Source: Candidatus Pacearchaeota archaeon (GTDB taxonomy: Archaea; Nanobdellota; Nanobdellia; Pacearchaeales; GW2011-AR1). Taken from it: DNA of 64,000 nucleotides. A program made the position numbers and the translations under genes. The DNA is taken from contig JAFCFX010000001.1 of NCBI GenBank assembly GCA_017608405.1, forward strand, positions 7,667-71,666. Direction: 5' to 3'. This document shows, one piece after another, positions 721 through 37,044 of this stretch; position 1 is the first letter of the stretch; each line of letters starts with the position of its first letter. The notes below the pieces were generated by a model, which worked only from the letters and a program-made list of their open reading frames with translations, searched no databases and was not told where the DNA came from.

Positions 721-825
721 ATGGTCCTGCCAAGAATCGGGCTCTGAATAAATTCAGGCCTAGCACTCAAATAAATTTAAGCACTAAACTAAAGTTCGAT
801 TTTTATATGGTCCTGCCAAGAATCG
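721..825 (-). repeat. 19-nt direct repeat of the tRNA-Val 3' end (721-739 and 807-825) bracketing a 67-nt two-hairpin module
   Basis: ATGGTCCTGCCAAGAATCG occurs twice (plus-strand coordinates). The second copy is the T-loop 3' part, T-stem 3' strand, acceptor 3' strand and discriminator of tRNA-Val. Between the copies are hairpins CTTAAAT/ATTTGAG and GGCCTGAA..TTCAGAGCC, written in tRNA orientation. The G.U pair exists only on the minus strand, which argues for a minus-strand transcript. Confidence 0.6.
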
Positions 826-919
826 AACTTGGGTTTCATCGAATCTGAAGTTATACTCTAAAGTTTATGATACTCATAACCTAGTCAGCGATGTGTCTTA
901 GCCATTGGACTACAGGACC
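808..919 (-). tRNA. tRNA-Val (anticodon GAC) with an intron of about 40 nt near the canonical 37/38 site
   Basis: Minus strand reads GGTCCTG-TA-GTCC-AATGGCTAA-GAC-A-CATCG-CTGACTA. After a 40-nt insert come CGATG, a T arm (CCAAG-TTCGATT-CTTGG), acceptor 3' strand CAGGACC and discriminator A. Acceptor strands are perfectly complementary and U33 is present. Anticodon identity is moderately sure. Confidence 0.7.
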
Positions 920-13049: not shown

Positions 13050-13106
13050 GGGTCTGTAGTTCAGCCTGGATAAGCTGGAATGTAAAATTCTGCTAAATCC
13101 ATCTGA
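13050..13106 (+). ncRNA. Orphan tRNA 5'-half-like sequence (acceptor 5' strand plus D arm, no matching 3' half nearby)
   Basis: GGGTCTG-TA-GTTC-AGCCTGGATA-AGC resembles a tRNA 5' end, and its D loop is identical to that of the adjacent tRNA-Arg. No canonical 7-nt anticodon loop forms and no CAGACCC acceptor partner is found within reach. It ends 1 nt before tRNA-Arg(UCU). Confidence 0.35.
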
Positions 13107-13107
13107 C

Positions 13108-13199
13108 GCCCCTGTAGCTCAGCCTGGATAGAGCGACTGCCTTCTATCTATTGAGGTGAAGAAAGCAGTAGGTCGCAGGTTCGAATCCTGTCGGGGGCA
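13108..13199 (+). tRNA. tRNA-Arg (anticodon UCU) with an intron of about 17 nt
   Basis: GCCCCTG-TA-GCTC-AGCCTGGATA-GAGC-G-ACTGC-CTTCTA, then an insert (TCTATTGAGGTGAAGAA) of about 17 nt, then GCAGT, AGGTC, GCAGG-TTCGAAT-CCTGT, CGGGGGC and discriminator A. Confidence 0.75.
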
Positions 13200-13261: not shown

Positions 13262-13399
13262 GCGGAGGTGGCACAACGGTACTGCAGTCGGTTGCAGCTG
13301 GGGGGCACCAAGGTTCCCCTTACGATAACCCCTCCTTTTTCGAAAGGAGAAGGAAAGGCAAAACCCGACTTTTCGTGGGTTCGACTCCCACCCTCCGCT
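13262..13399 (+). tRNA. tRNA-Cys (anticodon GCA) with a structured intron of about 68 nt; discriminator U73
   Basis: GCGGAGG-TG-GCAC-AACGGTA-CTGC-A-GTCGG-TTGCAG, then an intron of about 68 nt holding two hairpins, then CCGAC-TTTTC-GTGGG-TTCGACT-CCCAC-CCTCCGC-T. U73 is the expected Cys identity element. Spurious ORFs on both strands cover this RNA in the track. Confidence 0.7.
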
Positions 13400-14285: not shown

Positions 14286-17174
14286 ATGAGAAAGAGGGAG
14301 AGGATTGTTACTTATTTATTTATTGTAGTTTTACTTGGTTTTGCAATTGGTTTTTTATATGTAGCAGAGGTAAGACTTACTGGATTTGCTGTTTTTGGGG
14401 ATTCTGGAGTGGAAGTTGAAAAAGGAGCTTATTGGGATAAGTATGAAGATGCACAAGGGATTCAAAGACTAAAAATTCATAACACTCCTATTAATTATTA
14501 TGATGGAAATGATTATGTTAGTATTACTTATGGTTCTTGTGGGAGCAATTGTTTCAGAGATTGGAATGGATTAATCTATAGAGTAAGTACAGATCCTCAA
14601 AAAGCGTACATAAATTTATATGATTCTGAAGATAATTATATTTCTAGTTTTGGTTTTGGCATTACTGGACAGATTGGAGCAAATACTTATAAATATACTA
14701 CTTTGAATTTTACATGGACTTGGACCCAAGAAACTGTTGGAGAGGAATATATTTTTACAGGATCGAATAATCAAGCTAATTTTAATTGGACTCAAGAATT
14801 TCATTTTTATCCAAATCAATCAATGAAGATTAAAAATACAATTACAAATAATTTGGGAGTGAGTGTTGATAATACTGAATTTTGGTTTATTCAGACTATT
14901 GGATCAAATCAAGGTGTTTGGTTTAATGGAACTAAATATGATCAAGATGTATATAGGTCAGGAAATTTTGATGCGTTAATGTCAAATATTCAGTTTGAAG
15001 ATAATTATGTTTTTGATTATAGTGATTTGCTTGTTAATGGGTTTAATATTACTTCATTTTATTTAGGGGATGGAGAGGTTGTGGGGGTTGGAGGAACAAG
15101 ATTACTAGCAATTGGAATAACAAGGGGAAGCAGTGTATTTTCAGATGGAGTTGCTGTGGTTGTTGATCCTAGTGTAAAAGTAAGTGAGGGAGGGGATGAT
15201 GCATATGTGGCTTCTGGGAGTCCAAATCAAAATTTTGGAACAAATACAGGATTAGAAGTAAGAAGACAAAGTCCAACAAGAAGATCATATCTTATGTTTA
15301 ATATTTCTGAGATCCCTGTTAATCAAGTGATAGATGATGCAGAATTATGTTTGTATCTTTATGATGACGTGATTTCTGGGGCCACTACAATTTCAATAAA
15401 TCATGTTCACAATATTTCTTGGTGCGAGGGAAATGGAGGGAGTGATGGAAGCCCTGTTTGTGAAATAACTTGGAACAATCAACCTTGCGGAACAAATTTT
15501 GATAATTCTTCTTTATGTAATTTGACTTCAGAATCAAATATTACTAATGATGGAAATCAAGATAATACTTGGCAATGTTGGAATATTACTGCTTTGGTTT
15601 CTAAATCTTACTTGGATGGTAGCAATAAAACTGCAATGGTTTTGACTACAAATGATTCAGGGAGTGCAGATAAATTTAGATCAAAAGAATATAGTGATTC
15701 TGCTTTGTGGCCTTATATTAATGTTACTTATCATACTGCAAATATTGCCCCCTCTATAAGTCTTGTAGAGCCCCAGAACCTTGTGTATGGTTATAATGAA
15801 TCTTTATCTTTGAATTTTTCTGCTTTTGATATTGATGATAATTTAGATACTTGTTGGTATACAATTAATGCAGGGAGTGGGATTATTCTTGCAAATTGCA
15901 CTAATACTACTTTTGATGTTTCTGAAGAGGGAGTTTATAATTTGACAATTTATGTAAATGATACTTTTGGGGAGCAGGCAAGTGATAGTGTTAATTTTAA
16001 TATAGATTTAACAGGAGTAAGTATTTCTGTTTCAGAGCCTCAAGGAGACAAGACTTCTAGAACAGAAATTCCTTTGCAATATTCTGTGGTTGGGAATAAT
16101 TTAACTTGTTGGTATGAGGTAAGAACTTCAATTGGGGGAAGTGTCATTGATAATTTAACCCTTGTAAATTGTTCTGAGTCAAGTTTTGATGTTTCTTCAG
16201 ATGGAGATTATGTTTTGAGTTTATATGCAAATAATAGTTTTGGAACTTTTAATTTAACAAGTTCTAGTTTTAGTGTTTCAACTTCTTCAACTCCACCAGA
16301 TAATGGTGGGGGTAGCGGGGGGGGGAGTAGTAGTGGATCTTATACTTTAGCAACAGGACTCTTTATAGGCCCAGTACAGGATTTAATTATAGAGGCTGGA
16401 AAAACAAAGAAAATAAATGTAAATGTTAAAAATGAAAAGTTGGTTTTTTTACAAGACTGTAGGGTCGTAGGTGATGGAGATTATCCTGATTGGATTTCTC
16501 AAAGTGAAATTAAGGGCTTAGCTGCAGGAGAGTCTTATGATTTTATTTCTGATTTAACTATTCCTGAAGGTTTTGATTCAGGAATATATGGTTTGGGACT
16601 AAAGGTTGTTTGTGAAGGTGAAGAAAAAAATATTAGTTTTAATGTAGAGATTCTTGAAAAGAAATTTGATTTTCATTTAATTGATGTTGAGAGGTTTAGT
16701 GAAGATAAAATGAAAATAGTTTATTCTCTAGAAGAACTTGCAGGATTAGATCAGGAAATAGGAGTGGAATTTTTATTTTTTGATTTAGATGATGAGAAGC
16801 AAGCAGAGGTTAAAGAAAATAAGACAATCACCCCCAATTCAAATCAAGAATTCGAAGCCTTTGTTTCTATTGATCCTGATTTAAAAGGCGATTTAACTAT
16901 GTTAATTAATTTAAATTCAGAAGTTTATTCTTATTTTGTTCAAGAAAATATTGTTTTGGGCCCTTCAATTAGTGGTCTTGCTGTTTTAGCAGACAATGTT
17001 AATCTTAATAATATTTTTAGTATTGTCTTTGTTCTTCTTTTCTTGGTATTTGCTTTTTTTGTGATTAGAAAAATTAGGAGAGGCAAGGTAGGAGTTAAGA
17101 AAAAAAAATCAAGAAGAAAAAAATATGATTATGTAGTGCCTAAATATGTACTAATGGTCTTGTGTGGTGCCTAA
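14286..17174 (+). CDS. Large cell-surface protein (962 aa), N-glycosylation sequon-rich, tandem Ig-like repeats, C-terminal TM anchor with basic tail; S-layer-like
   Basis: N-terminal TM; more than 30 NxS/T sequons (e.g. NSSLCNLTSESNITNDG, NKTAMVLTTNDSG); two repeats of about 90 aa (CWYTINAG...FDVSEEGVYNLTIYVNDTFG / CWYEVRTS...FDVSSDGDYVLSLYANNSFG); GGGSGGGSSSGS linker; C-terminal hydrophobic segment plus IRKIRRGKVGVKKKKSRRKK. Confidence 0.65.
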   Translation: MRKRERIVTYLFIVVLLGFAIGFLYVAEVRLTGFAVFGDSGVEVEKGAYWDKYEDAQGIQRLKIHNTPINYYDGNDYVSITYGSCGSNCFRDWNGLIYRVSTDPQKAYINLYDSEDNYISSFGFGITGQIGANTYKYTTLNFTWTWTQETVGEEYIFTGSNNQANFNWTQEFHFYPNQSMKIKNTITNNLGVSVDNTEFWFIQTIGSNQGVWFNGTKYDQDVYRSGNFDALMSNIQFEDNYVFDYSDLLVNGFNITSFYLGDGEVVGVGGTRLLAIGITRGSSVFSDGVAVVVDPSVKVSEGGDDAYVASGSPNQNFGTNTGLEVRRQSPTRRSYLMFNISEIPVNQVIDDAELCLYLYDDVISGATTISINHVHNISWCEGNGGSDGSPVCEITWNNQPCGTNFDNSSLCNLTSESNITNDGNQDNTWQCWNITALVSKSYLDGSNKTAMVLTTNDSGSADKFRSKEYSDSALWPYINVTYHTANIAPSISLVEPQNLVYGYNESLSLNFSAFDIDDNLDTCWYTINAGSGIILANCTNTTFDVSEEGVYNLTIYVNDTFGEQASDSVNFNIDLTGVSISVSEPQGDKTSRTEIPLQYSVVGNNLTCWYEVRTSIGGSVIDNLTLVNCSESSFDVSSDGDYVLSLYANNSFGTFNLTSSSFSVSTSSTPPDNGGGSGGGSSSGSYTLATGLFIGPVQDLIIEAGKTKKINVNVKNEKLVFLQDCRVVGDGDYPDWISQSEIKGLAAGESYDFISDLTIPEGFDSGIYGLGLKVVCEGEEKNISFNVEILEKKFDFHLIDVERFSEDKMKIVYSLEELAGLDQEIGVEFLFFDLDDEKQAEVKENKTITPNSNQEFEAFVSIDPDLKGDLTMLINLNSEVYSYFVQENIVLGPSISGLAVLADNVNLNNIFSIVFVLLFLVFAFFVIRKIRRGKVGVKKKKSRRKKYDYVVPKYVLMVLCGA

Positions 17175-17210
17175 AGAAAAGTTTATATAGTTTTGTAGTG
17201 CCTAAGTATA

Positions 17211-18860
17211 ATGGCATTTGTTGTTAAGAAAGTGATTTATGGGAAAGAATATTATTATCTTAATGAAAATAAGAGGGTTGATGGAAAAGTAAAGACAAAG
17301 ACACTTGCTTATCTTGGTAAGACAAGAAAAGATGCAGAAAAAAAAGCTAAGCAGATCTTAGAGCAGAATGTGGGTGAGAAAAAAAAGAAAAAACCACCTG
17401 TTCAGTTGATAAAATCTGAGATTTCTATTGAAGATATGGCTGTTTTTTGTAAAAGAAAGGGTTTTGTTTATCAATCAGGCGATATTTACGGGGGATTGGC
17501 AGGATTTTGGGATTTTGGATATTTGGGTGTTGAATTGAAAAGTAATCTTGAGCATGAATGGTGGAAATCCCATGTAAGTCAAAGAGAGGACATAGTGGGG
17601 ATTGACGGCTCAATAATCACCAATCCTAAGGTTTGGGAAGCTTCTGGTCATGTTGAGAATTTTAATGATATTGCTGTGGTTTGTAAAAAATGCAAAAAAG
17701 CAACAAAGTTAGATAAGTCTGAATTAGGAAAAGTTAAATGTGAGTGTGGAGGAGAATATGAAAATAAAGGCGAGTTTAATCAATTGTTTGAAAGTAATGT
17801 TGGACCTTTAAATTCACAAAAAATTTATTTAAGACCAGAGACTGCGCAACTGATGTTTACTAATTTTAAATTTGTTTATGATAATGCAAGAATGAAATTG
17901 CCTTTTGGAATTGCTCAGGTTGGAAAAGCTTTTAGAAATGAAATTGCTCCAAGAGATTTTTTATTTAGGTGTAGAGAATTTAATCAAATGGAAGTTGAGT
18001 ATTTTATTAATTCTAATGAAGATTGTTCATATAAGATCCCAGAAGTAGTTATTTTGATTTATTCTGCAGAAGCACAAGAAAAAAATAAAGAACCTTTAAA
18101 GATGAAGATTTCAGAAGCATTAAAGAAAAAGATTATTAAAAAAGATTGGCATGCATATTGGCTTGCAATAGAATTTTTATGGTTTAAAAATTTGGGGGCA
18201 GATCCTGATAAGTTTAGAATACGGCAGCACACCAAAGAAGAACTTGCACATTATTCAAGTGATTGTTGGGATTTAGAATATAATTTTCCTTTTGGTTGGA
18301 AAGAGCTGGAAGGGATTGCAGATAGAGGAGATTATGATTTAAGTCAGCATGAAAAAGTTTCAAAAAAAGATTTAAAGATTTTTGATGAGAAAAGTAAAAG
18401 TAAGATTTTGCCGTTTGTTGTTGCTGAACCCTCTCTTGGTCTTGAAAGATCTTTCTTAGTTTTTTTGTTTGATGCTTTTTATAAAAATAAAGAAGCAGGC
18501 AATGTTGTTTTGAGGTTGCACCCCAAACTTTCTCCGATCAAAGCTGCGATTTTTCCAATTGTTAAGCAACCAAAGTTTGAAAAGATTGCAGAAGAAATTG
18601 TAAATGATTTGAAAAAGGAATTTGTGATTGTTTACGATAAATCCGGGAGTATTGGAAGAAGGTATGCAAGGAATGATGAAGTTGGAACCCCTTTTTGCAT
18701 AACTGTCGATGGCGATTCTATAAAAAATAAGGATGTGACAATTAGGGACCGGGATACAACAAAACAGATTCGAGTAAAAAATTCCGATTTAAAAGAAGTT
18801 TTGAGAAAATTAATTAATAAAGAGATTGAATTTGAAAGAGCAGGTAAGTTGATTAGTTAA
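17211..18860 (+). CDS. glyS: Glycyl-tRNA synthetase (archaeal/eukaryotic-type class II) with a Lys-rich N-terminal extension of about 75 aa
   Basis: Core starts about aa 76 (alternative ATG at 17436): RKGFVYQSGDIYGGLAGFWDFGYLG, motif-2/3-like FRNEIAPRDFLFRCREFNQMEVEYF, and a C-terminal anticodon-binding domain. Confidence 0.8.
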   Translation: MAFVVKKVIYGKEYYYLNENKRVDGKVKTKTLAYLGKTRKDAEKKAKQILEQNVGEKKKKKPPVQLIKSEISIEDMAVFCKRKGFVYQSGDIYGGLAGFWDFGYLGVELKSNLEHEWWKSHVSQREDIVGIDGSIITNPKVWEASGHVENFNDIAVVCKKCKKATKLDKSELGKVKCECGGEYENKGEFNQLFESNVGPLNSQKIYLRPETAQLMFTNFKFVYDNARMKLPFGIAQVGKAFRNEIAPRDFLFRCREFNQMEVEYFINSNEDCSYKIPEVVILIYSAEAQEKNKEPLKMKISEALKKKIIKKDWHAYWLAIEFLWFKNLGADPDKFRIRQHTKEELAHYSSDCWDLEYNFPFGWKELEGIADRGDYDLSQHEKVSKKDLKIFDEKSKSKILPFVVAEPSLGLERSFLVFLFDAFYKNKEAGNVVLRLHPKLSPIKAAIFPIVKQPKFEKIAEEIVNDLKKEFVIVYDKSGSIGRRYARNDEVGTPFCITVDGDSIKNKDVTIRDRDTTKQIRVKNSDLKEVLRKLINKEIEFERAGKLIS

Positions 18861-20045: not shown

Positions 20046-20147
20046 ATGTCTCTGAGGGGATTTTGGCTCAGAACAAGTTCTGGCCTGCGTTTTGATAAAT
20101 CAAAACACAAACCAAGGTTAAAATCATAATGTCTCTGAGGGGATTTT
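20046..20147 (-). repeat. 19-nt direct repeat of the tRNA-CAU 3' end (20046-20064 and 20129-20147) bracketing a 64-nt two-hairpin module
   Basis: ATGTCTCTGAGGGGATTTT occurs twice. Between the copies (tRNA orientation) are hairpins GTTTTGA/TCAAAAC and GGCCAGAA..TTCTGAGCC, the same architecture as the module downstream of tRNA-Val. Confidence 0.6.
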
Positions 20148-20259
20148 AACCCCCGACCTCTGCCTTTCTCAGTCAACACTGGAATCAAAGATTCCGTGAA
20201 TGTGTTTGAATAAATTCAAACCCATGAGAGCAGCGCTCTAAACCCTGAGCTACAGAGAC
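20130..20259 (-). tRNA. tRNA-Met or tRNA-Ile2 (anticodon CAU) with an intron of about 56 nt
   Basis: Minus strand reads GTCTCTG-TA-GCTC-AGGGTTTA-GAGC-G-CTGCT-CTCATG, then an intron of about 56 nt with two hairpins (GTTTGAAT/ATTCAAAC and GGAATC/GATTCC), then GGCAG-AGGTC-GGGGG-TTAAAAT-CCCCT-CAGAGAC-A. The anticodon stem lacks the GGG/CCC initiator signature, so this is an elongator Met or agmatidine-type Ile2. Confidence 0.7.
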
Positions 20260-21478: not shown

Positions 21479-21793
21479 TTAGAATAAAGAAGAAGATATT
21501 AGGGCTATTATGTTTAGAATTATTAATGAGTTTAGAATTTTAAGTGTTTTTACTCTTTTTTTTATGCTTTCATTTATGTTGTATTTGTTTGAAAAAGTTG
21601 TTTTAAATATGGGATTTGCAGCAAATAATGTTAGATTGGTTATTTTATGAGTGAACTTGGTAGGGTTTAATTCATGGTATAAGCTTGGAGATTTATTTTT
21701 GATATCGCTCATTATGCTATTCAAATATAGGTATCTAATTATTGCTAGAACCATTAAGGTAACTGCTAGTATTATTGTAAGGTAGAGATTCAT
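21479..21793 (-). CDS. Hypothetical membrane protein
   Basis: 104 aa, hydrophobic N- and C-terminal segments; 4-nt overlap with endA. Confidence 0.35.
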   Translation of the reverse strand: MNLYLTIILAVTLMVLAIIRYLYLNSIMSDIKNKSPSLYHELNPTKFTHKITNLTLFAANPIFKTTFSNKYNINESIKKRVKTLKILNSLIILNIIALISSSLF

Positions 21794-22329
21794 GGCCTAA
21801 CCCAACCTACCTCATAATAACTAACATCTCCTTCTTCATCAAGAATTGCTAGTAAAAGTTTCTTTTTTGTGGAATGTGCAACACGATTTTTTGCACTGAA
21901 TTCGTGCCAGGTCAATCTTTTTGATTCGTGATCTGCAAATACAATCCATTTTGCATGTATTTTTCCTGGTTTTTTTCCTTTGTCATAGACTCTGAAATCT
22001 GCTCCAAATTTTAAGGCTGTTTTTACAATATATCCTTTTTCTCTTAAATTTTTAAACACAGGATATTTTAATTGGATTCTTTTATCTATTCTTTTGAATT
22101 TGTTTAATAGTTCTTTTTTTTCAATTTTTTTGTTTCTCGAGTAGATTTCTATTTTGTTTTTTTCAACTAAGAATAAAGCTTCTGATAAGGTATATTGAAT
22201 TTTTTCCCCAATACGTTCCCCAAAGCAAGATTTTTTGCACAAATTATGAGCTTCACTAGTATTGCTGGATACAATCTGTCCAATAATGTGTGCTTGTATT
22301 TTTTCCATGTTTTGAATACGAGAGGACAA
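21790..22329 (-). CDS. endA: tRNA-splicing endonuclease (EndA), short homotetramer-type
   Basis: 179 aa. The C-terminal catalytic domain KTALKFGADFRVYDKGKKPGKIHAKWIVF carries the conserved G.DFRVY ... H.K motif. This is consistent with the four intron-bearing tRNAs in this window. Confidence 0.8.
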   Translation of the reverse strand: MSSRIQNMEKIQAHIIGQIVSSNTSEAHNLCKKSCFGERIGEKIQYTLSEALFLVEKNKIEIYSRNKKIEKKELLNKFKRIDKRIQLKYPVFKNLREKGYIVKTALKFGADFRVYDKGKKPGKIHAKWIVFADHESKRLTWHEFSAKNRVAHSTKKKLLLAILDEEGDVSYYEVGWVRP

Positions 22330-26474: not shown

Positions 26475-27494
26475 TTGTTATCTATGGAAAAGTGGGTGAT
26501 AGTTTCAGCAGTGAGTATTCTTTTGTTCCTTGTTGTGGGGGGCATTTGGATGTTTCAACCTTTTTGGAAACTTTTTACTTGTGGAGATGGAACACTTTAT
26601 GGAACCTGCTCTTCAAGACAACCTTATTTTTGCGGTCAGGGGTTTCTTGTAGAAAATGCCTCTTTTTGTGGATGTCCTGAAATCTTAACTTTAGAAGAAA
26701 ATTCTTGTATTTCTGATTATCAAACAAAACCAAGGAAAACTCTTTTGAAATATATTTTAAGAGGCAAAGAAAATTATATTGATTTTACTGCTTATGGGGG
26801 CCTAGTTGATTATTTATTAGATCTTTCTCCAAATGTTGTTTTTGATGAGCAAGGAGAAGTTTCTTTTAGAGATTTGAAAATTAGAAATATTAATCTCGTG
26901 GAACAAGAATATTTGATTTTACCTTTAGTCACACAAATACAAAATCTTGTTCATGATAAAACAGATCAGATGAGGATTGCTATTAGTTTGGTTCAACATA
27001 TTCCCTATAATGAGTCTGAGAAGATTGTTAGGGTAAGGAATCAAAATTTTAATTATTCTAGATATGCTTATGAGGTTCTTTATGAATCACAAGCTGCTTG
27101 TGGAGGCAAGTCAGAGCTTTTGGCTTTTTTATTAAAAGAAATTGGTTATGGTGTTGTTTTGTTTTATTATCCTGTTGAAGATCATATTGCTGTTGGAGTG
27201 AAATGTCCTCTGGAATATAGTTTAGATAATAGTGGATATTGTTTTATTGAAACTACAGGACCAGCAATAATTACAAATAATCAAAATTACTATATTGGTT
27301 GGGGTAAGCTTAGTCCTAATCCTGAAATAATTTCAATTTCTGAAGGATATTCTTTAGATGATGATTTATATGAATATGATGATGCTGACAAAAGAATTAA
27401 GATTTCTGCAGTCATTGAAGAAAAAGGAGAGATTAATTGGTTTCAGAGTAAAGAATTGAGTAAATTAAAACAAAAATATGGTTTAGAGTTTTAG
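26475..27494 (+). CDS. Membrane-anchored transglutaminase-like (Cys-His-Asp papain-fold) protein
   Basis: N-terminal TM then Cys-rich CGDGTLYGTCSS. Core YESQAACGGKSELLAFLLKEIGYGVVLFYYPVEDHIAVGV matches the transglutaminase-like C...H arrangement. Confidence 0.55.
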   Translation: MLSMEKWVIVSAVSILLFLVVGGIWMFQPFWKLFTCGDGTLYGTCSSRQPYFCGQGFLVENASFCGCPEILTLEENSCISDYQTKPRKTLLKYILRGKENYIDFTAYGGLVDYLLDLSPNVVFDEQGEVSFRDLKIRNINLVEQEYLILPLVTQIQNLVHDKTDQMRIAISLVQHIPYNESEKIVRVRNQNFNYSRYAYEVLYESQAACGGKSELLAFLLKEIGYGVVLFYYPVEDHIAVGVKCPLEYSLDNSGYCFIETTGPAIITNNQNYYIGWGKLSPNPEIISISEGYSLDDDLYEYDDADKRIKISAVIEEKGEINWFQSKELSKLKQKYGLEF

Positions 27495-34920: not shown

Positions 34921-36003
34921 ATGGATATTAAAGTTAATCCTGAAAAAGACTTGGGGAAAAAAAAGAAAAATGCAGATGAAACAACTTTTATTGATGTCTT
35001 GAAGATTTTTTCACCAGGAACTGTTATGAGGACAGCATTTGATGATATTTTGCGTGCAAGAATGGGTGCCTTGGTTGTAGTGGATAAAGAAGGATTTTCT
35101 TCTATTTGTGAGGGAGGATTTAAAGTTAATTGTAAATTTAGTTCTCAAAGATTGGTAGAGCTTGCTAAAATGGATGGGGCAATTATTCTTTCTTCTGATA
35201 GAAAGAAAATACTTTCTGCTAATACCCTTTTAGTACCAAATATTAATTTACATACGAGTGAAACAGGCACAAGACACAGGGCAGCTGAAAGAACTTCTAA
35301 GCAATTTAAAACAATAGTGGTGGCTGTTTCTGAAAGAAGAAACAAGATTACTTTGTATTGGGGAGATGAAAAACATGTTTTGGAAAAAAGCTCTGAAATT
35401 TTAAGAAGAGCTACAGAGACACTACAAATATTAGAAAAACAAAAAGATATTTTTGAAGATGCTTTATTGCATTTGAATATTTTAGAAATAACTAATCTTG
35501 CAACTACAAGTGATGTTTGTAATGTTTTGCAAAGAATGGAGATTATTAGAAGAATTTCAGAAAGTGTAAAAAGATATTTAGTGGAGTTAGGAAAAGAAGG
35601 GATTATTGTTAGTATGAGATTAAAAGAATTAACAAGGAATTTGAGTTCAGAAAGAGAAATGATATTAATAGATTATTTTAAATCGCGTGCACCCAAAATT
35701 AAGACGCTTCTCAATAATATGAATTTTGATTTTTTATTGGAAACTTCTAATATTGTGAGGCTAATTTTTGAAAAACTCCATGACGAGTCTGTTTCTGGTA
35801 AAGGCGAAAGGATTTTAAGTAAGATAAATCTTCTTGAAAAAGAGAGAAGACTTTTAATGACTCATTTTAAAACCTTGGATAAGGTTTTTGATGCAGATAA
35901 AGAATCTCTCTTGGAAATTGTTCAGAGACAAGCAATTGTGGACTCATTAAAAGAAAAATTAGAAAATTTAAGAGAAAAAATTTTGAATGGGAAACGAATT
36001 TAA
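34921..36003 (+). CDS. Diadenylate cyclase (DAC domain, DisA-like) c-di-AMP synthase
   Basis: N-terminal DAC motifs: DGAIILS, TGTRHRAAERTS, VSERRNKITLY; 360 aa with a helical C-terminal region. Confidence 0.75.
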   Translation: MDIKVNPEKDLGKKKKNADETTFIDVLKIFSPGTVMRTAFDDILRARMGALVVVDKEGFSSICEGGFKVNCKFSSQRLVELAKMDGAIILSSDRKKILSANTLLVPNINLHTSETGTRHRAAERTSKQFKTIVVAVSERRNKITLYWGDEKHVLEKSSEILRRATETLQILEKQKDIFEDALLHLNILEITNLATTSDVCNVLQRMEIIRRISESVKRYLVELGKEGIIVSMRLKELTRNLSSEREMILIDYFKSRAPKIKTLLNNMNFDFLLETSNIVRLIFEKLHDESVSGKGERILSKINLLEKERRLLMTHFKTLDKVFDADKESLLEIVQRQAIVDSLKEKLENLREKILNGKRI

Positions 36004-37044
36004 ATGTTAACTGAAAAACAAGTGATGGAGATTAAATCTCATCTTGAAAAGGCACAGAATCCTTTGTTTTTTTTTGATAATGATGCAGATGGATTATGTA
36101 GTTTTCTTTTACTGCAAAGATGGATTGGGAGAGGAAAAGGATTTCCTGTTAAATCTTTTCCTGATTTAACTGTTGATTATTTTAGGAAAGTTAATGAATT
36201 AAATGCAGATTATATTTTCATTTTAGATAAACCAGTTGTTTCTGAGGATTTTTTTAAAGAAGTAAAACAAGTCAATATTCCTGTTGTTTGGATTGATCAT
36301 CATGGAGCGCAAAGCAATATACCGGATTTTGTTAATTATTATGACCCCACATTAAATAAGCCTCCTTCTAATGAACCTGTGACTGCTTTGTGTTATCAAA
36401 TAACAAATAAAAAAGATGATTTGTGGATTGCAGTAATGGGGTGTGTAGCAGATGGGTATGTTCCTGATTTTTATGAAGATTTTAAAAAGGATTTTCCTGA
36501 TTTGACAGTAGATTCAAAAGATGCTTTCCATGTTCTTTATAGTTCCCAGATAGGGCAAATTGCCCAAACCCTTGGAAATGGATTAAAAGACAGGACAACT
36601 AATGTTATCAGTATGTTGAAGTTTTTAATGCGAGCAGCAGGCCCTTATGATGTTTTAGAAGAGACAAATAAAAATCATACAATGCATGAACGTTCTAAAC
36701 AAATTCAGAAAAAATTTAATGAATTAATAGATAGGGCAAAAATTCTTGCTAAATCTTCTGATAAGATTTTATTTTTTAAATATGGCGGGGATTTGAGTAT
36801 TAGTGCTGAATTGGCAAATAAATTATGCTATCTGTTTCCAGAAAAGGTTGTTGTTGTGGCTTATATGAGTGGGATTAAGGCGAACGTTTCCATAAGGGGG
36901 AAAAACGTAAAAAAGCTTGTTGAACAGGCAATTAAAGGATTGGAGAATGCTACAGGGGGAGGCCACGAGATGGCTGTTGGTGCCCAGGTGAGGATAGAAG
37001 ATGTTGATAAATTTAAAGAAAATTTAAATAGAATTTTAGTATAG
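36004..37044 (+). CDS. DHH-family phosphoesterase (NrnA/GdpP-like)
   Basis: FDNDADGLCSF (DxD) and WIDHHG (DHH) motifs. Start codon abuts the stop of the DAC gene. Confidence 0.7.
   Translation: MLTEKQVMEIKSHLEKAQNPLFFFDNDADGLCSFLLLQRWIGRGKGFPVKSFPDLTVDYFRKVNELNADYIFILDKPVVSEDFFKEVKQVNIPVVWIDHHGAQSNIPDFVNYYDPTLNKPPSNEPVTALCYQITNKKDDLWIAVMGCVADGYVPDFYEDFKKDFPDLTVDSKDAFHVLYSSQIGQIAQTLGNGLKDRTTNVISMLKFLMRAAGPYDVLEETNKNHTMHERSKQIQKKFNELIDRAKILAKSSDKILFFKYGGDLSISAELANKLCYLFPEKVVVVAYMSGIKANVSIRGKNVKKLVEQAIKGLENATGGGHEMAVGAQVRIEDVDKFKENLNRILV

Follow-up and report, generated by a model that had tools for sequence, protein, structure and literature searches.

The stretch that follows the tRNA-Val(GAC) gene in a 64,000-nt segment of a Candidatus Pacearchaeota genome (the window) is best explained as the scar of a selfish palindromic mini-element comparable to the Rickettsia palindromic elements (RPEs), a reading to which we assign a probability of about 0.6, and the two hairpins that it contains are probably not a new functional RNA. 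The module is ordered as an intact tRNA, 0-5 nt, a 9-11-nt reverse-complement copy of the T-loop (segment (a)), a two-hairpin element (E) and a displaced tRNA 3' end. It is present at tRNA-Val (M1) and at tRNA-CAU (M2), with the following parts:

808..919, minus strand: tRNA-Val(GAC), intact gene (Rfam tRNA model, 51.8 bits; also found by ARAGORN -i on the same contig)
843-882, minus strand: canonical BHB intron of tRNA-Val, 40 nt (strict BHB scan, h=5, h'=7)
807..825, minus strand: copy 1 of the 19-mer, tRNA-Val positions 56-73 plus one base, the working 3' end (exact repeat)
802..806, minus strand: linker 'n', ATAAA, between the tRNA-Val end and the inverted copy
792..801, minus strand: segment (a), AATCGAACTT, reverse-complementary without mismatch to tRNA-Val positions 51-60
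787..791, minus strand: T plus AGTT, T-arm positions 52-55 repeated in direct orientation, directly 5' of E (read from the sequence)
761..786, minus strand: hairpin 1 of E, TTTA loop on a stem of 11 bp that includes three G.U pairs (fold and covariation)
740..760, minus strand: hairpin 2 of E, GGCCTGAATTTATTCAGAGCC, 8 bp with a bulged A (fold)
721..739, minus strand: displaced 'relic' copy of tRNA-Val positions 56-74 (exact repeat)
20130..20259, minus strand: tRNA-CAU, intact gene with the unusual T-loop TTAAAAT (Rfam tRNA model, 52.2 bits)
20166-20222, minus strand: canonical intron of tRNA-CAU, 57 nt (strict BHB scan, h=5, h'=3)
20046..20128, minus strand: M2, the whole second module (layout as in M1)
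3' of tRNA-CAU, minus strand: linker TAT of M2
20116-20125, minus strand: segment (a) of M2, GATTTTAACC, exact reverse complement of its own tRNA
20110-20115, minus strand: TTGGTT of M2
20086-20109, minus strand: hairpin 1 of M2
20065-20085, minus strand: hairpin 2 of M2
20046-20064, minus strand: relic 19-mer of M2

Both tRNA genes, whose introns lie at 37/38, were missed by ARAGORN run without the intron option and were recovered by the Rfam tRNA model. The initial annotation had described a spacer of 67 nt with two hairpins between tRNA-Val and an exact 19-nt copy of its tail, as well as the same layout at tRNA-CAU (20046-20259), and both were found as described. The 19-mer CGATTCTTGGCAGGACCAT has two exact occurrences (807-825 and 721-739), with a chance expectation of 0 in 100 shuffles even when three mismatches were permitted, and AAAATCCCCTCAGAGACAT likewise occurs exactly at 20129-20147 and 20046-20064; both pairs cover the tRNA from position 56 to one base beyond the discriminator. 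Hairpin 1, whose stem in M1 is TAGTGCTTAAA/TTTGAGTGCTA, had been recognized with a shorter stem than the one found here. Segment (a) had been overlooked: it matches, as a perfect reverse complement, positions 51-60 (M1) or 52-61 (M2) of its own tRNA, and in M1 it comprises the end of the T-stem and the T-loop, crossing the 55/56 insertion point. The AGTT within 787..791 forms the left side of the interrupted T-loop of the relic. Directly 3' of the M1 relic lies the ordinary rpl44e promoter region (CTTTAAAAAC), followed by rpl44e (361-678), and the relic is considered to occupy the ancestral position because in relatives this promoter directly abuts the tRNA end.

E consists of two unlike adjacent hairpins, is 45-48 nt long and non-coding. 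Hairpin 2 (GGCCNGAANNNNTTCNGAGCC) adjoins the second 19-mer copy in both modules and was not detected elsewhere in the 64-kb window, even with three mismatches; by fuzzy pattern search the window holds two copies of E, which is multicopy across metagenome contigs. On the tRNA strand the M1 spacer folds with -17.7 kcal/mol (z -3.2 versus shuffles, compared with z -1.2 on the opposite strand), and the M2 spacer reaches z -4.2 versus shuffles on both strands. Among 22 copies compared, 8 of the 9 pairs of hairpin 1 showed changes on both sides, in an alignment that was anchored on the stem halves (MAFFT misaligned hairpin 1) and leans towards that structure. Pairing is biased to one strand (26 G.T versus 4 A.C pairs), and the folding strand is the tRNA-sense strand, even where it is antisense to an mRNA. 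The hairpins of E are real and strand-specific, and the earlier view of a recurrent, non-random unit with conserved structure and strand-specific pairing is upheld. At least 22 metagenomic copies of the 21-mer family of hairpin 2 were found, with a near-invariance that is partly imposed by the search pattern. E moves between tRNAs: the copies of L147 and L196 (L-numbers denote loci or contigs of relatives and metagenomes), which sit at different tRNAs in separate samples, were identical (49/49), the subfamilies of E differ between orthologous tRNAs and one subfamily is found at different tRNAs. The strong conservation of E, set against the decay of the relic, could also mean that E is under selection for some function.

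With Rfam 15, tRNA matches alone reached the gathering threshold in the whole window, and a search of 700-830 with E-values up to 10 gave only weak chance matches. A box C/D or K-turn in hairpin 2 was discarded upon reading the sequence: its CUGA is not a conserved box, because it switches strand between M1 and M2. A pseudo-tRNA on the opposite strand was likewise discarded, as it has no acceptor pairing. The 57 ORFs of the window are housekeeping genes in appearance, judged by eye, no transposase, integrase or reverse transcriptase was seen among them, and a full-text literature search did not retrieve a published description of E.

The further copies anticipated beyond the window were found. 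A metagenome scan evidenced at least 12 additional tRNA modules of identical layout, at eight or more tRNA identities that include Arg, Ile (GAT and TAT types), Asn, Leu and Trp, with introns present or absent; the supposed pairing of every copy with an intron-containing tRNA does not hold, since the host tRNAs of L129, L147, L191 and L232 are intronless. In the tallies that follow, modules were counted among the matches listed. In 11/12 modules segment (a) matches the local T-loop exactly in reverse complement, and it follows rare T-loop variants as well (CGATT, AAAAT, CAAAT, CAATT), and the junction of GTT with the element is common to all tRNA-type modules. The linker of related modules measures 0-5 nt and is negative in L232, where the tRNA and segment (a) overlap by 2 nt. 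The relic carries one to three uncompensated mismatches in 5/12 related modules (L152, L196, L210, L232, L237) and is diverged in L047, and decay of segment (a) and the tail copy was seen in L196, L210 and L232. Serial modules, with older relics pushed outward, are present in L095, L142 and L234; in L142 the older inverted copy retains a standard T-loop sequence since lost by the tRNA. Judging from these matches, the tRNA-specific parts of the module agree with the local tRNA, and segment (a) is copied from it.

Comparison of protein genes indicates that E inserts independently of any tRNA. E forms an exact 45-nt in-frame insertion in the LeuRS of L236 relative to the LeuRS of the window, and in the DHH phosphoesterase of L182 it corresponds to a 15-aa gap in the window homolog (36004-37044); other E-bearing protein genes include those of ribosomal P0, L22 and Kae1. 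Among the matches listed, 9/9 protein-gene copies lie on the antisense strand in a single frame and are read through as GSEQVQA..., a uniformity of orientation and frame that may reflect selection for a benign peptide. No target-site duplication was found at these insertions in the LeuRS and DHH alignments; the inserted 45 nt equal the 24 and 21 nt of the two hairpins, which therefore leaves no room for one. Two outcomes must consequently be assumed for one element, and a casposon- or transposon-like fixed target duplication was rejected, being absent from the protein-gene copies. In the preferred reading, the copies of E belong to a mobile family in some Pacearchaeota-like archaea.

Empty sites, a comparison proposed in the initial annotation, were found at orthologous loci of both tRNAs. 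The majority of tRNA-Val loci adjoining rpl44e in 80 Pacearchaeales genomes are without any module, including L049, although its tRNA-Val 3' end is identical to that of the window; the module is also absent from the tRNA-CAU of L245, L247 and L249, and a fuzzy pattern search of 80 other Pacearchaeales loci did not detect it. Terminal duplication is found more widely in these genomes: 20/147 tRNAs in the loci are accompanied by a copy of 11 nt or more of their own 3' tail, and tail repeats of 11-24 nt were found at 18 other tRNAs. In a long-range scan, for which the available downstream sequence had a median length of 1.85 kb, all tail copies (18/18) lay 46-207 nt downstream, with 0 upstream and 0 farther away.

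According to the mini-element model, E would have landed between T55 and C56 of the tRNA T-loop, in the copy now borne by the displaced 3' fragment of M1 and M2, and the tRNA gene would have been remade upstream of E by a second copy of positions 56-74. The remade end would then be followed by the 0-5 linker bases and by 9-11 nt that repeat the T-loop region, without the interruption, in inverted orientation. E would be mobilised in trans by a putative enzyme via a single-stranded intermediate, and a survivorship filter would operate at tRNA loops, where insertions may persist only if the same event recreates the gene end, because each tRNA gene in these small genomes is presumably essential and present once. 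Copy 1 would serve the working tRNA, and the module would be devoid of host function. The inverted T-loop copy fits no known transposition chemistry; hairpin-capped ends, snap-back cDNA and single-strand circle integration were considered, and none accounts for every feature of it. Template switching or snap-back repair synthesis is a possible, tentative source of the direct and inverted target copies. It is quite unlikely that E is a guided mini-element, in which the 9-13-nt inverted target copy would be a guide pairing with the flanks of E, carried or written at insertion, and the folded strand would offer a host or other recombinase a duplex mimic of the tRNA loop; if true, this would represent a mobile element on the 45-nt scale with target recognition by base pairing and a regenerating duplication of 19 bp. 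tRNA introns may also be gained from hairpins of the E type: an insertion at 37/38 that forms a BHB can survive as an intron, and one in the T- or D-loop survives only with duplication. Hairpin 2 and a hairpin in the tRNA-CAU intron of the window (20206-20219) have a common 12-nt core (TGAATTTATTCA) with compensating flanks.

Among the three readings offered by the initial annotation, that of tiny tRNA-targeting elements leaving a repeat of the tRNA end comes closest, though not as classical attL/attR sites, given the 64-67-bp spacing and the movement of E without a tRNA repeat. Formulated as a miniature integrative element, the module would be a non-autonomous unit of 83-86 bp (tRNA 56-74, linker, inverted T-loop copy and E) inserted by a site-specific recombinase acting at the T-loop, with the 19-mers as attL/attR cores. 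Integration into a tRNA gene is classically recognised by a direct repeat that spans T-loop to tRNA end, the serial modules (L095, L142, L234) resemble successive integrations, a core-type site could be represented by the inverted copy close to the attL side, and one crossover within 56-74, joining the gene with a circle of 86 nt, would give the exact observed order. The strand-specific hairpins with their bulged base are also like folded single-strand recombination sites, and in a variant of this proposal segment (a) and the E flanks of a folded single strand would mimic a duplex target (cf. integron attC sites and CTX phage). It is nevertheless unlikely: the 64-67 nt between the repeats of M1 and M2 have no coding capacity, the inverted arms lie 16-18 bp apart, exceeding a tyrosine-recombinase core, E stands alone in protein genes, and each of the eight or more tRNAs would require its own tRNA-specific lineage of the same E subfamily. 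Furthermore, no full-size parent element is seen, because tail copies never lie more than 207 nt away, and a scan of IMG/VR with the hairpin 2 pattern gave 41 matches, all attributable to chance, on unrelated and mostly GC-rich contigs, none followed by a tRNA tail. The end of a kb-scale integrated element was rejected on the same distance limit, which holds in every locus, and on the position of rpl44e directly after the relic. A small HTH ORF found beside rpl44e in relatives without tRNA-Val there is, by eye, not an integrase.

That the stretch is a functional structured RNA co-transcribed with the tRNA, as a signal for 3' trailer processing or for termination, as a decoy, or as an sRNA with a tRNA 3'-end mimic, would agree with the strand-specific pairing on the tRNA strand, the strong covariation of hairpin 1 and near-invariance of hairpin 2, and the capacity of segment (a) to pair with the T-loop of the pre-tRNA. 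This suggestion of the initial annotation becomes highly unlikely when the same hairpins are antisense and in frame in unrelated coding sequences, where such a role is impossible, when the orthologous loci of most relatives are without the module, when tail copy and segment (a) decay, and when no Rfam family matches. Its other suggestion, a trans-acting or alternative 3' segment, finds no support, given the uncompensated relic mismatches and the absence of a BHB motif that could splice it in. An ordinary tandem duplication, with a randomly eroded second tRNA and incidental AT-rich palindromes, has very little probability: L071 (82-nt repeat) and L118 (42 nt) do look like plain duplications past the tRNA end, and L105 contains a second tRNA-Val as a 3' two-thirds copy, but random erosion would not reproduce 12 or more independent modules with identical breakpoints (55/56 and 74), E and an inverted segment, and E in protein genes is left unexplained. 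It is scarcely credible that copy 1 and the spacer are spliced out as a non-canonical intron upstream of an alternative 3' exon, or that the distal copy is the 3' piece of a split tRNA. Excision of 86 nt at any register within the repeat would yield the same mature sequence, and these genomes are rich in tRNA introns, with a splicing endonuclease gene at 21790-22308; yet the strict BHB scan gave only background 86-nt candidates (h=2, h'=2), and the endonuclease is of the short single-chain form (172-179 aa, both endonuclease domains). Enzymes of this form are not known to accept other than canonical BHB motifs. The tRNA gene is, moreover, complete without splicing, and a partner 5' half was not found, the window matches to tRNA 5' ends (11-13 nt, ~27262 and ~35420) ending after the acceptor strand.

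As to known systems, RPEs are short non-coding hairpin-forming repeats that reside in frame in many unrelated housekeeping genes and are tolerated as extra peptide (PMC10969869). E shares with them this working principle, the in-frame palindromic insertion in unrelated conserved genes, but measures ~45 nt instead of ~100-150 bp, has an archaeal (DPANN) and not a rickettsial host, consists of two different tandem hairpins, and occurs in tRNA genes with a direct and an inverted target copy, which is not described for RPEs in that work. Tycheposons are flanked by partial tRNAs (bioRxiv 10.1101/2020.12.28.424599), and in these and archaeal integrative elements, as in the module, a 3' direct repeat is formed, the gene is regenerated with the fragment placed distally, and successive events displace older relics outward; the module differs in the 64-67 bp between repeats, in having neither integrase nor kb-scale parent, in its inverted target copy and in the insertion of E without a repeat. 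MITEs, REP sequences and palindromic derivatives of IS200/IS605 are, like E, small, multicopy and non-autonomous, with strand-specific hairpins and a biased insertion orientation. Unlike MITEs, E has no inverted repeats at its ends (TAGTG... and ...GAGCC), the sole inverted pair being target sequence, and no fixed short target duplication (19 nt at the tRNAs of M1 and M2, none in protein genes). The ends of IS200/IS605 bear near-identical hairpins, whereas hairpins 1 and 2 of E are unlike each other; the strand-specific hairpins and the protein-gene copies without duplication would be consistent with a derivative of that family. Archaeal BHB introns and the split tRNAs of Nanoarchaeum also represent extra sequence interrupting tRNA loops. 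E differs from the former in that no BHB motif flanks it and its removal is not needed, the tRNA being complete with copy 1, and the module differs from the latter in that the adjacent tRNA is intact and a separate 5' half was not found in the window.

If the mini-element reading is true, some DPANN archaea with tiny genomes carry a mobile hairpin element of extremely small size (~45 nt) that enters essential genes by two routes, tolerated in proteins as an in-frame peptide and accompanied in tRNA genes by a self-healing duplication. The relic tails and inverted T-loop copies would be fossils in a datable record of tRNA gene breakage and repair, with a bearing on why archaeal tRNA genes gather introns and fragments and whether mobile DNA drives this. 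Such scars can mislead tRNA annotation as well as predictors of att sites and genomic islands, and the 15-residue GSEQVQA... inserts would appear as unexplained indels in conserved phylogeny marker proteins.

A mirror 'head' module was detected in the window upstream of tRNA-Arg(TCT) (13108-13199), with these parts:

13050..13107, plus strand: whole head module (short-direct-repeat scan, family D13)
13050-13072, plus strand: diverged copy of tRNA-Arg positions 1-23
13093-13106, plus strand: imperfect inverted copy of the D-loop region

It also holds a short hairpin-like stretch. Apart from three tRNA-linked cases, the short direct repeats found in the window are repeats within coding sequence or resemble promoter motifs. 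The head-module architecture is also present in L055, L082, L108, L147 and L232, and the module architecture was found as well at the 3' end of a gene encoding a YbjQ-like protein (L049).

Seven tRNA genes were detected with Rfam in the window, which is contained in the 152-kb JGI metagenome contig Ga0366824_1000030, has a G+C content of 31.6% and whose ribosomal proteins have their closest matches in Pacearchaeota/Nanoarchaeota metagenome-assembled genomes; three of these tRNAs were missed by ARAGORN in default mode because they bear introns. Two tRNA genes are followed by a module (M1 after tRNA-Val, M2 after tRNA-CAU), both with the same order of parts:

808-919, minus strand: tRNA-Val(GAC), with a canonical 40-nt intron at 843-882
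20130-20259, minus strand: tRNA-CAU, with an intron at 20166-20222
Proximal part of the module: intact tRNA (positions 1-74), linker, segment (a), 2-4 bases
Distal part of the module: GTT (positions 53-55), hairpin 1, hairpin 2, positions 56-74

The exact 19-nt copy of the tRNA 3' end that the initial annotation placed 67 nt beyond tRNA-Val was confirmed as a second CGATTCTTGGCAGGACCAT at 721-739 (minus strand), and so was the same layout at tRNA-CAU, where a 64-nt spacer precedes a second AAAATCCCCTCAGAGACAT at 20046-20064 (minus strand). Both 19-mers run from tRNA position 56 to one base beyond the discriminator, and no chance occurrence of either is expected, even at three mismatches. Hairpin 2 (GGCCNGAANNNNTTCNGAGCC) adjoins the distal 19-mer in both modules and has no further occurrence within the window, and both spacers fold significantly better than shuffles, in M1 on the tRNA strand only. 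The hairpins and tail copy described earlier are thus present, but segment (a) had been overlooked. Starting 3-5 bases past the tRNA end, it reads AATCGAACTT in M1 and GATTTTAACC in M2 and is the exact reverse complement of positions 51-60 or 52-61 of its own tRNA, that is, of the T-loop across position 55/56. Based on this order, the distal part reads as a T-loop split between T55 and C56 by a two-hairpin element of 45-48 nt, here called E.

Relatives with empty sites, a check that had been proposed, were found for both tRNAs. Among 80 rpl44e loci of other Pacearchaeales, most have tRNA-Val immediately before the rpl44e promoter (…CTTTAAAAAC…) and no module, whereas in the window this promoter comes after the distal 19-mer and not after the tRNA; one module-free tRNA-Val locus (L049) has a tRNA 3' end identical to that of the window. 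Orthologous tRNA-CAU genes in three relatives (L245, L247, L249) have neither intron nor module and share the same unusual T-loop, TTAAAAT, a conserved variant with A at position 56, where C is near-universal. On this comparison, the module is best read as an insertion and the distal copy as the former gene end. At a further locus (L142) an older inverted copy downstream corresponds to a standard T-loop, TTCAAAT, as though an earlier T-loop state had been retained there. Searched as hairpin 2 at ≤3 mismatches, E was absent from 391 kb of other Pacearchaeales loci and is therefore lineage-restricted.

A metagenome scan with GGCCNGAANTTNTTCNGAGCC returned at least 120 loci, of which contigs below 40% G+C were then examined. 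Among the matches listed, at least 12 further tRNA modules with identical layout were recovered, the tRNAs reading Arg, Ile (two isoacceptors), Asn, Leu, Trp and others; as 4 of these 12 tRNAs are intronless, a tie to intron-containing tRNAs does not hold. In 11/12 of the modules listed, segment (a) matches the reverse complement of the local T-loop exactly over 8-11 nt, following the tRNA-specific variants CGATT, AAAAT, CAAAT, CGAAT and CAATT, and the distal tail is identical in 7/12 and has 1-3 mismatches in 5/12. As both agree in sequence with the local tRNA, copying from the target explains them best, rather than transport by E; locus L196, where (a) and the relic tail each deviate from the tRNA, is a partial exception. 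Copies of E at two distinct tRNAs in two samples (L147, L196) agree at 49/49 positions, orthologous tRNAs bear different hairpin-1 subfamilies (L196 vs L239; L147 vs L234), and older relics lie beyond newer ones in L142, L234 and L095.

Hairpins 1 and 2 also occur inside protein-coding genes, with at least nine copies among the matches listed, in hosts including ribosomal P0, ribosomal L22, a DHH-family protein, Kae1 and LeuRS. All nine listed (9/9) lie on the antisense strand and are read through in frame as GSEQVQA(S/L)S…. Alignment of the LeuRS and DHH copies with their window orthologues evidenced clean insertions of exactly 45 nt (a 15-aa gap in the DHH protein), indicating that E inserts independently, without a tRNA repeat.

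Comparison of 22 copies of E, covering nine base-of-stem positions of hairpin 1 plus hairpin 2, the invariance of which is partly forced by the search pattern, gave 94.7% pairing cells vs 76% in shuffles, with 8/9 hairpin-1 pairs altered on both sides. In a hairpin-1 alignment anchored on structure, the covariation score was 0.498 vs 0.132 in shuffles and ≤0.113 in slid controls. In a fixed register G.T pairs exceed A.C pairs by 26 to 4, and therefore the stems fold on the tRNA-sense strand. Protein-gene copies have the same folding strand, there antisense to the mRNA, which argues against a role of E as part of the host transcript; this constancy fits an active form consisting of one particular single strand.

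Altogether, E can be regarded as a selfish palindromic mini-element whose insertions in tRNA genes survive only with the gene end recreated (probability about 0.6). In proteins it would persist where 15 hydrophilic residues are tolerated, while insertion into the T-loop or D-loop of a presumably single-copy, essential tRNA gene would be lethal unless the same event recreated the gene end; given survival of gene-restoring events only, only "healed" products are seen. The healed tract, in which a few untemplated bases link the tRNA end to an inverted copy of the unbroken target, resembles the product of template-switch or snap-back repair synthesis, a tentative and rather doubtful source; alternatively, a small folded single-stranded circle may integrate through a single crossover in the 56-74 interval. 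A YbjQ-like gene (L049, 4840-4925) shows the arrangement of the tRNA modules at its 3' end: beyond the intact end (…GASEMLAYGTAVKL*) come a 6-nt inverted copy, a CTGAACAAGTTCAG hairpin and a last-codon relic, so the process is not tRNA-specific. In L123 (3560-3720) a YbjQ-like gene likewise has a duplicated 3' end with a short hairpin-bearing insert between intact end and relic.

Among the identities previously considered, a tiny tRNA-targeting element comes closest, with the difference that only the hairpin pair of 45-48 nt would be mobile, the tRNA-derived parts being a by-product. A new functional tRNA-associated RNA is unsupported, as the folding strand is antisense to the mRNA in protein-gene copies, most relatives lack the module at orthologous loci and no Rfam family matches it. 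A strict scan for the bulge-helix-bulge (BHB) motif of archaeal tRNA introns found the canonical introns, with the module not above background; no viral contig in IMG/VR had the hairpin beside a tRNA tail, and the space between the repeats is too small for a gene. Membership tests placed E outside MITEs, BHB introns, split tRNAs and att-flanked integrative elements. Rickettsia palindromic elements colonize housekeeping genes in frame (PMC10969869), as E does, and integrase-mediated insertion in tRNA genes leaves partial tRNA repeats and serial events (bioRxiv 10.1101/2020.12.28.424599), a footprint similar to that of the E modules; E is a member of neither group, and literature searches found no published description of it. 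Its appeal lies in its size and the reproducible direct-plus-inverted target copies, and it may bear on the way in which archaeal tRNA genes gain insertions.

Duplicated tRNA ends are frequent in these genomes and not confined to E. Among 147 tRNAs detected in Pacearchaeales loci (ARAGORN, introns allowed), 20 are followed by a copy of their own 3' tail (≥11 nt) at a distance of up to 250 nt, and no upstream copy was found for any of them; in a whole-locus search (median 1.85 kb downstream) 18/18 tail copies lay at 46-207 nt. These duplications comprise several distinct short inserts, among them the hairpin-2 family. A second family, with ends (T)CGAGCRAYTTCG…GCGAGCAAG, breaks the T-arm of displaced tRNA-Thr tails at one orthologous locus shared by several species (L048, L047, L095, L100, L103, L118); the relic tail in L047 has an acceptor sequence unlike that of the working tRNA. 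In L105 (2300-2480) a complete tRNA-Val directly precedes the 3' two-thirds of another tRNA-Val, which contains an intron and differs in its acceptor stem. Mirror-image head modules, with the tRNA 5' end copied upstream, were found in L055, L082, L108, L147, L232 and the window:

13050-13107, plus strand: head module upstream of tRNA-Arg(TCT) at 13108-13199

It contains a diverged copy of the first 23 nt of this tRNA (GGGTCTGTAGTTCAGCCTGGATA vs GCCCCTGTAGCTCAGCCTGGATA), then a short stretch resembling a hairpin and an inverted but imperfect copy of the D-loop region. The acceptor strand of the relic would not pair with the present tRNA-Arg 3' strand, suggesting either an old relic or replacement of the entire gene.

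In several Pacearchaeales a conserved near-palindrome, AAAGAAAACCTTGGTTGTCTTT, a candidate leader hairpin or protein-binding site, lies directly 5' of mature tRNA starts, as upstream of tRNA-Val in L049 and L050 (2200-2500 in each, as tandem arrays of 47-65-nt units), L053, L055 and L047. In L071, L097 and L108 this motif lies directly before displaced tRNA tail copies.

The first hairpin of the tRNA-CAU intron (GTTTGAATTTATTCAAAC, 20206-20219, minus strand) has a 12-nt core, TGAATTTATTCA, also present in M1 hairpin 2, with flanks compensating relative to the latter. A similar core occurs in a tRNA-Thr intron (L060), and enrichment of the motif in introns is weak (2/13 motif matches); this may hint at a relation between introns and E-type elements. 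A GC-rich tRNA at 13262-13399 (plus strand; anticodon region GCA, insert of ~64 nt), missed by default ARAGORN and scoring 44.4 bits with Rfam, showed no canonical BHB motif with h ≥4 in the strict scan. Two matches to tRNA 5' ends in coding regions, one of 13 nt to tRNA-CAU (35408-35420, minus strand; followed by a hairpin and T-run) and one of 11 nt to tRNA-Val (~27252-27262, minus strand), are probably due to chance. At 17123-17209 (plus strand) GT(A/G)GTGCCTAA(A/G) occurs three times in the short gap before a gene starting at 17211, and is a promoter-like motif unrelated to the tRNA modules.
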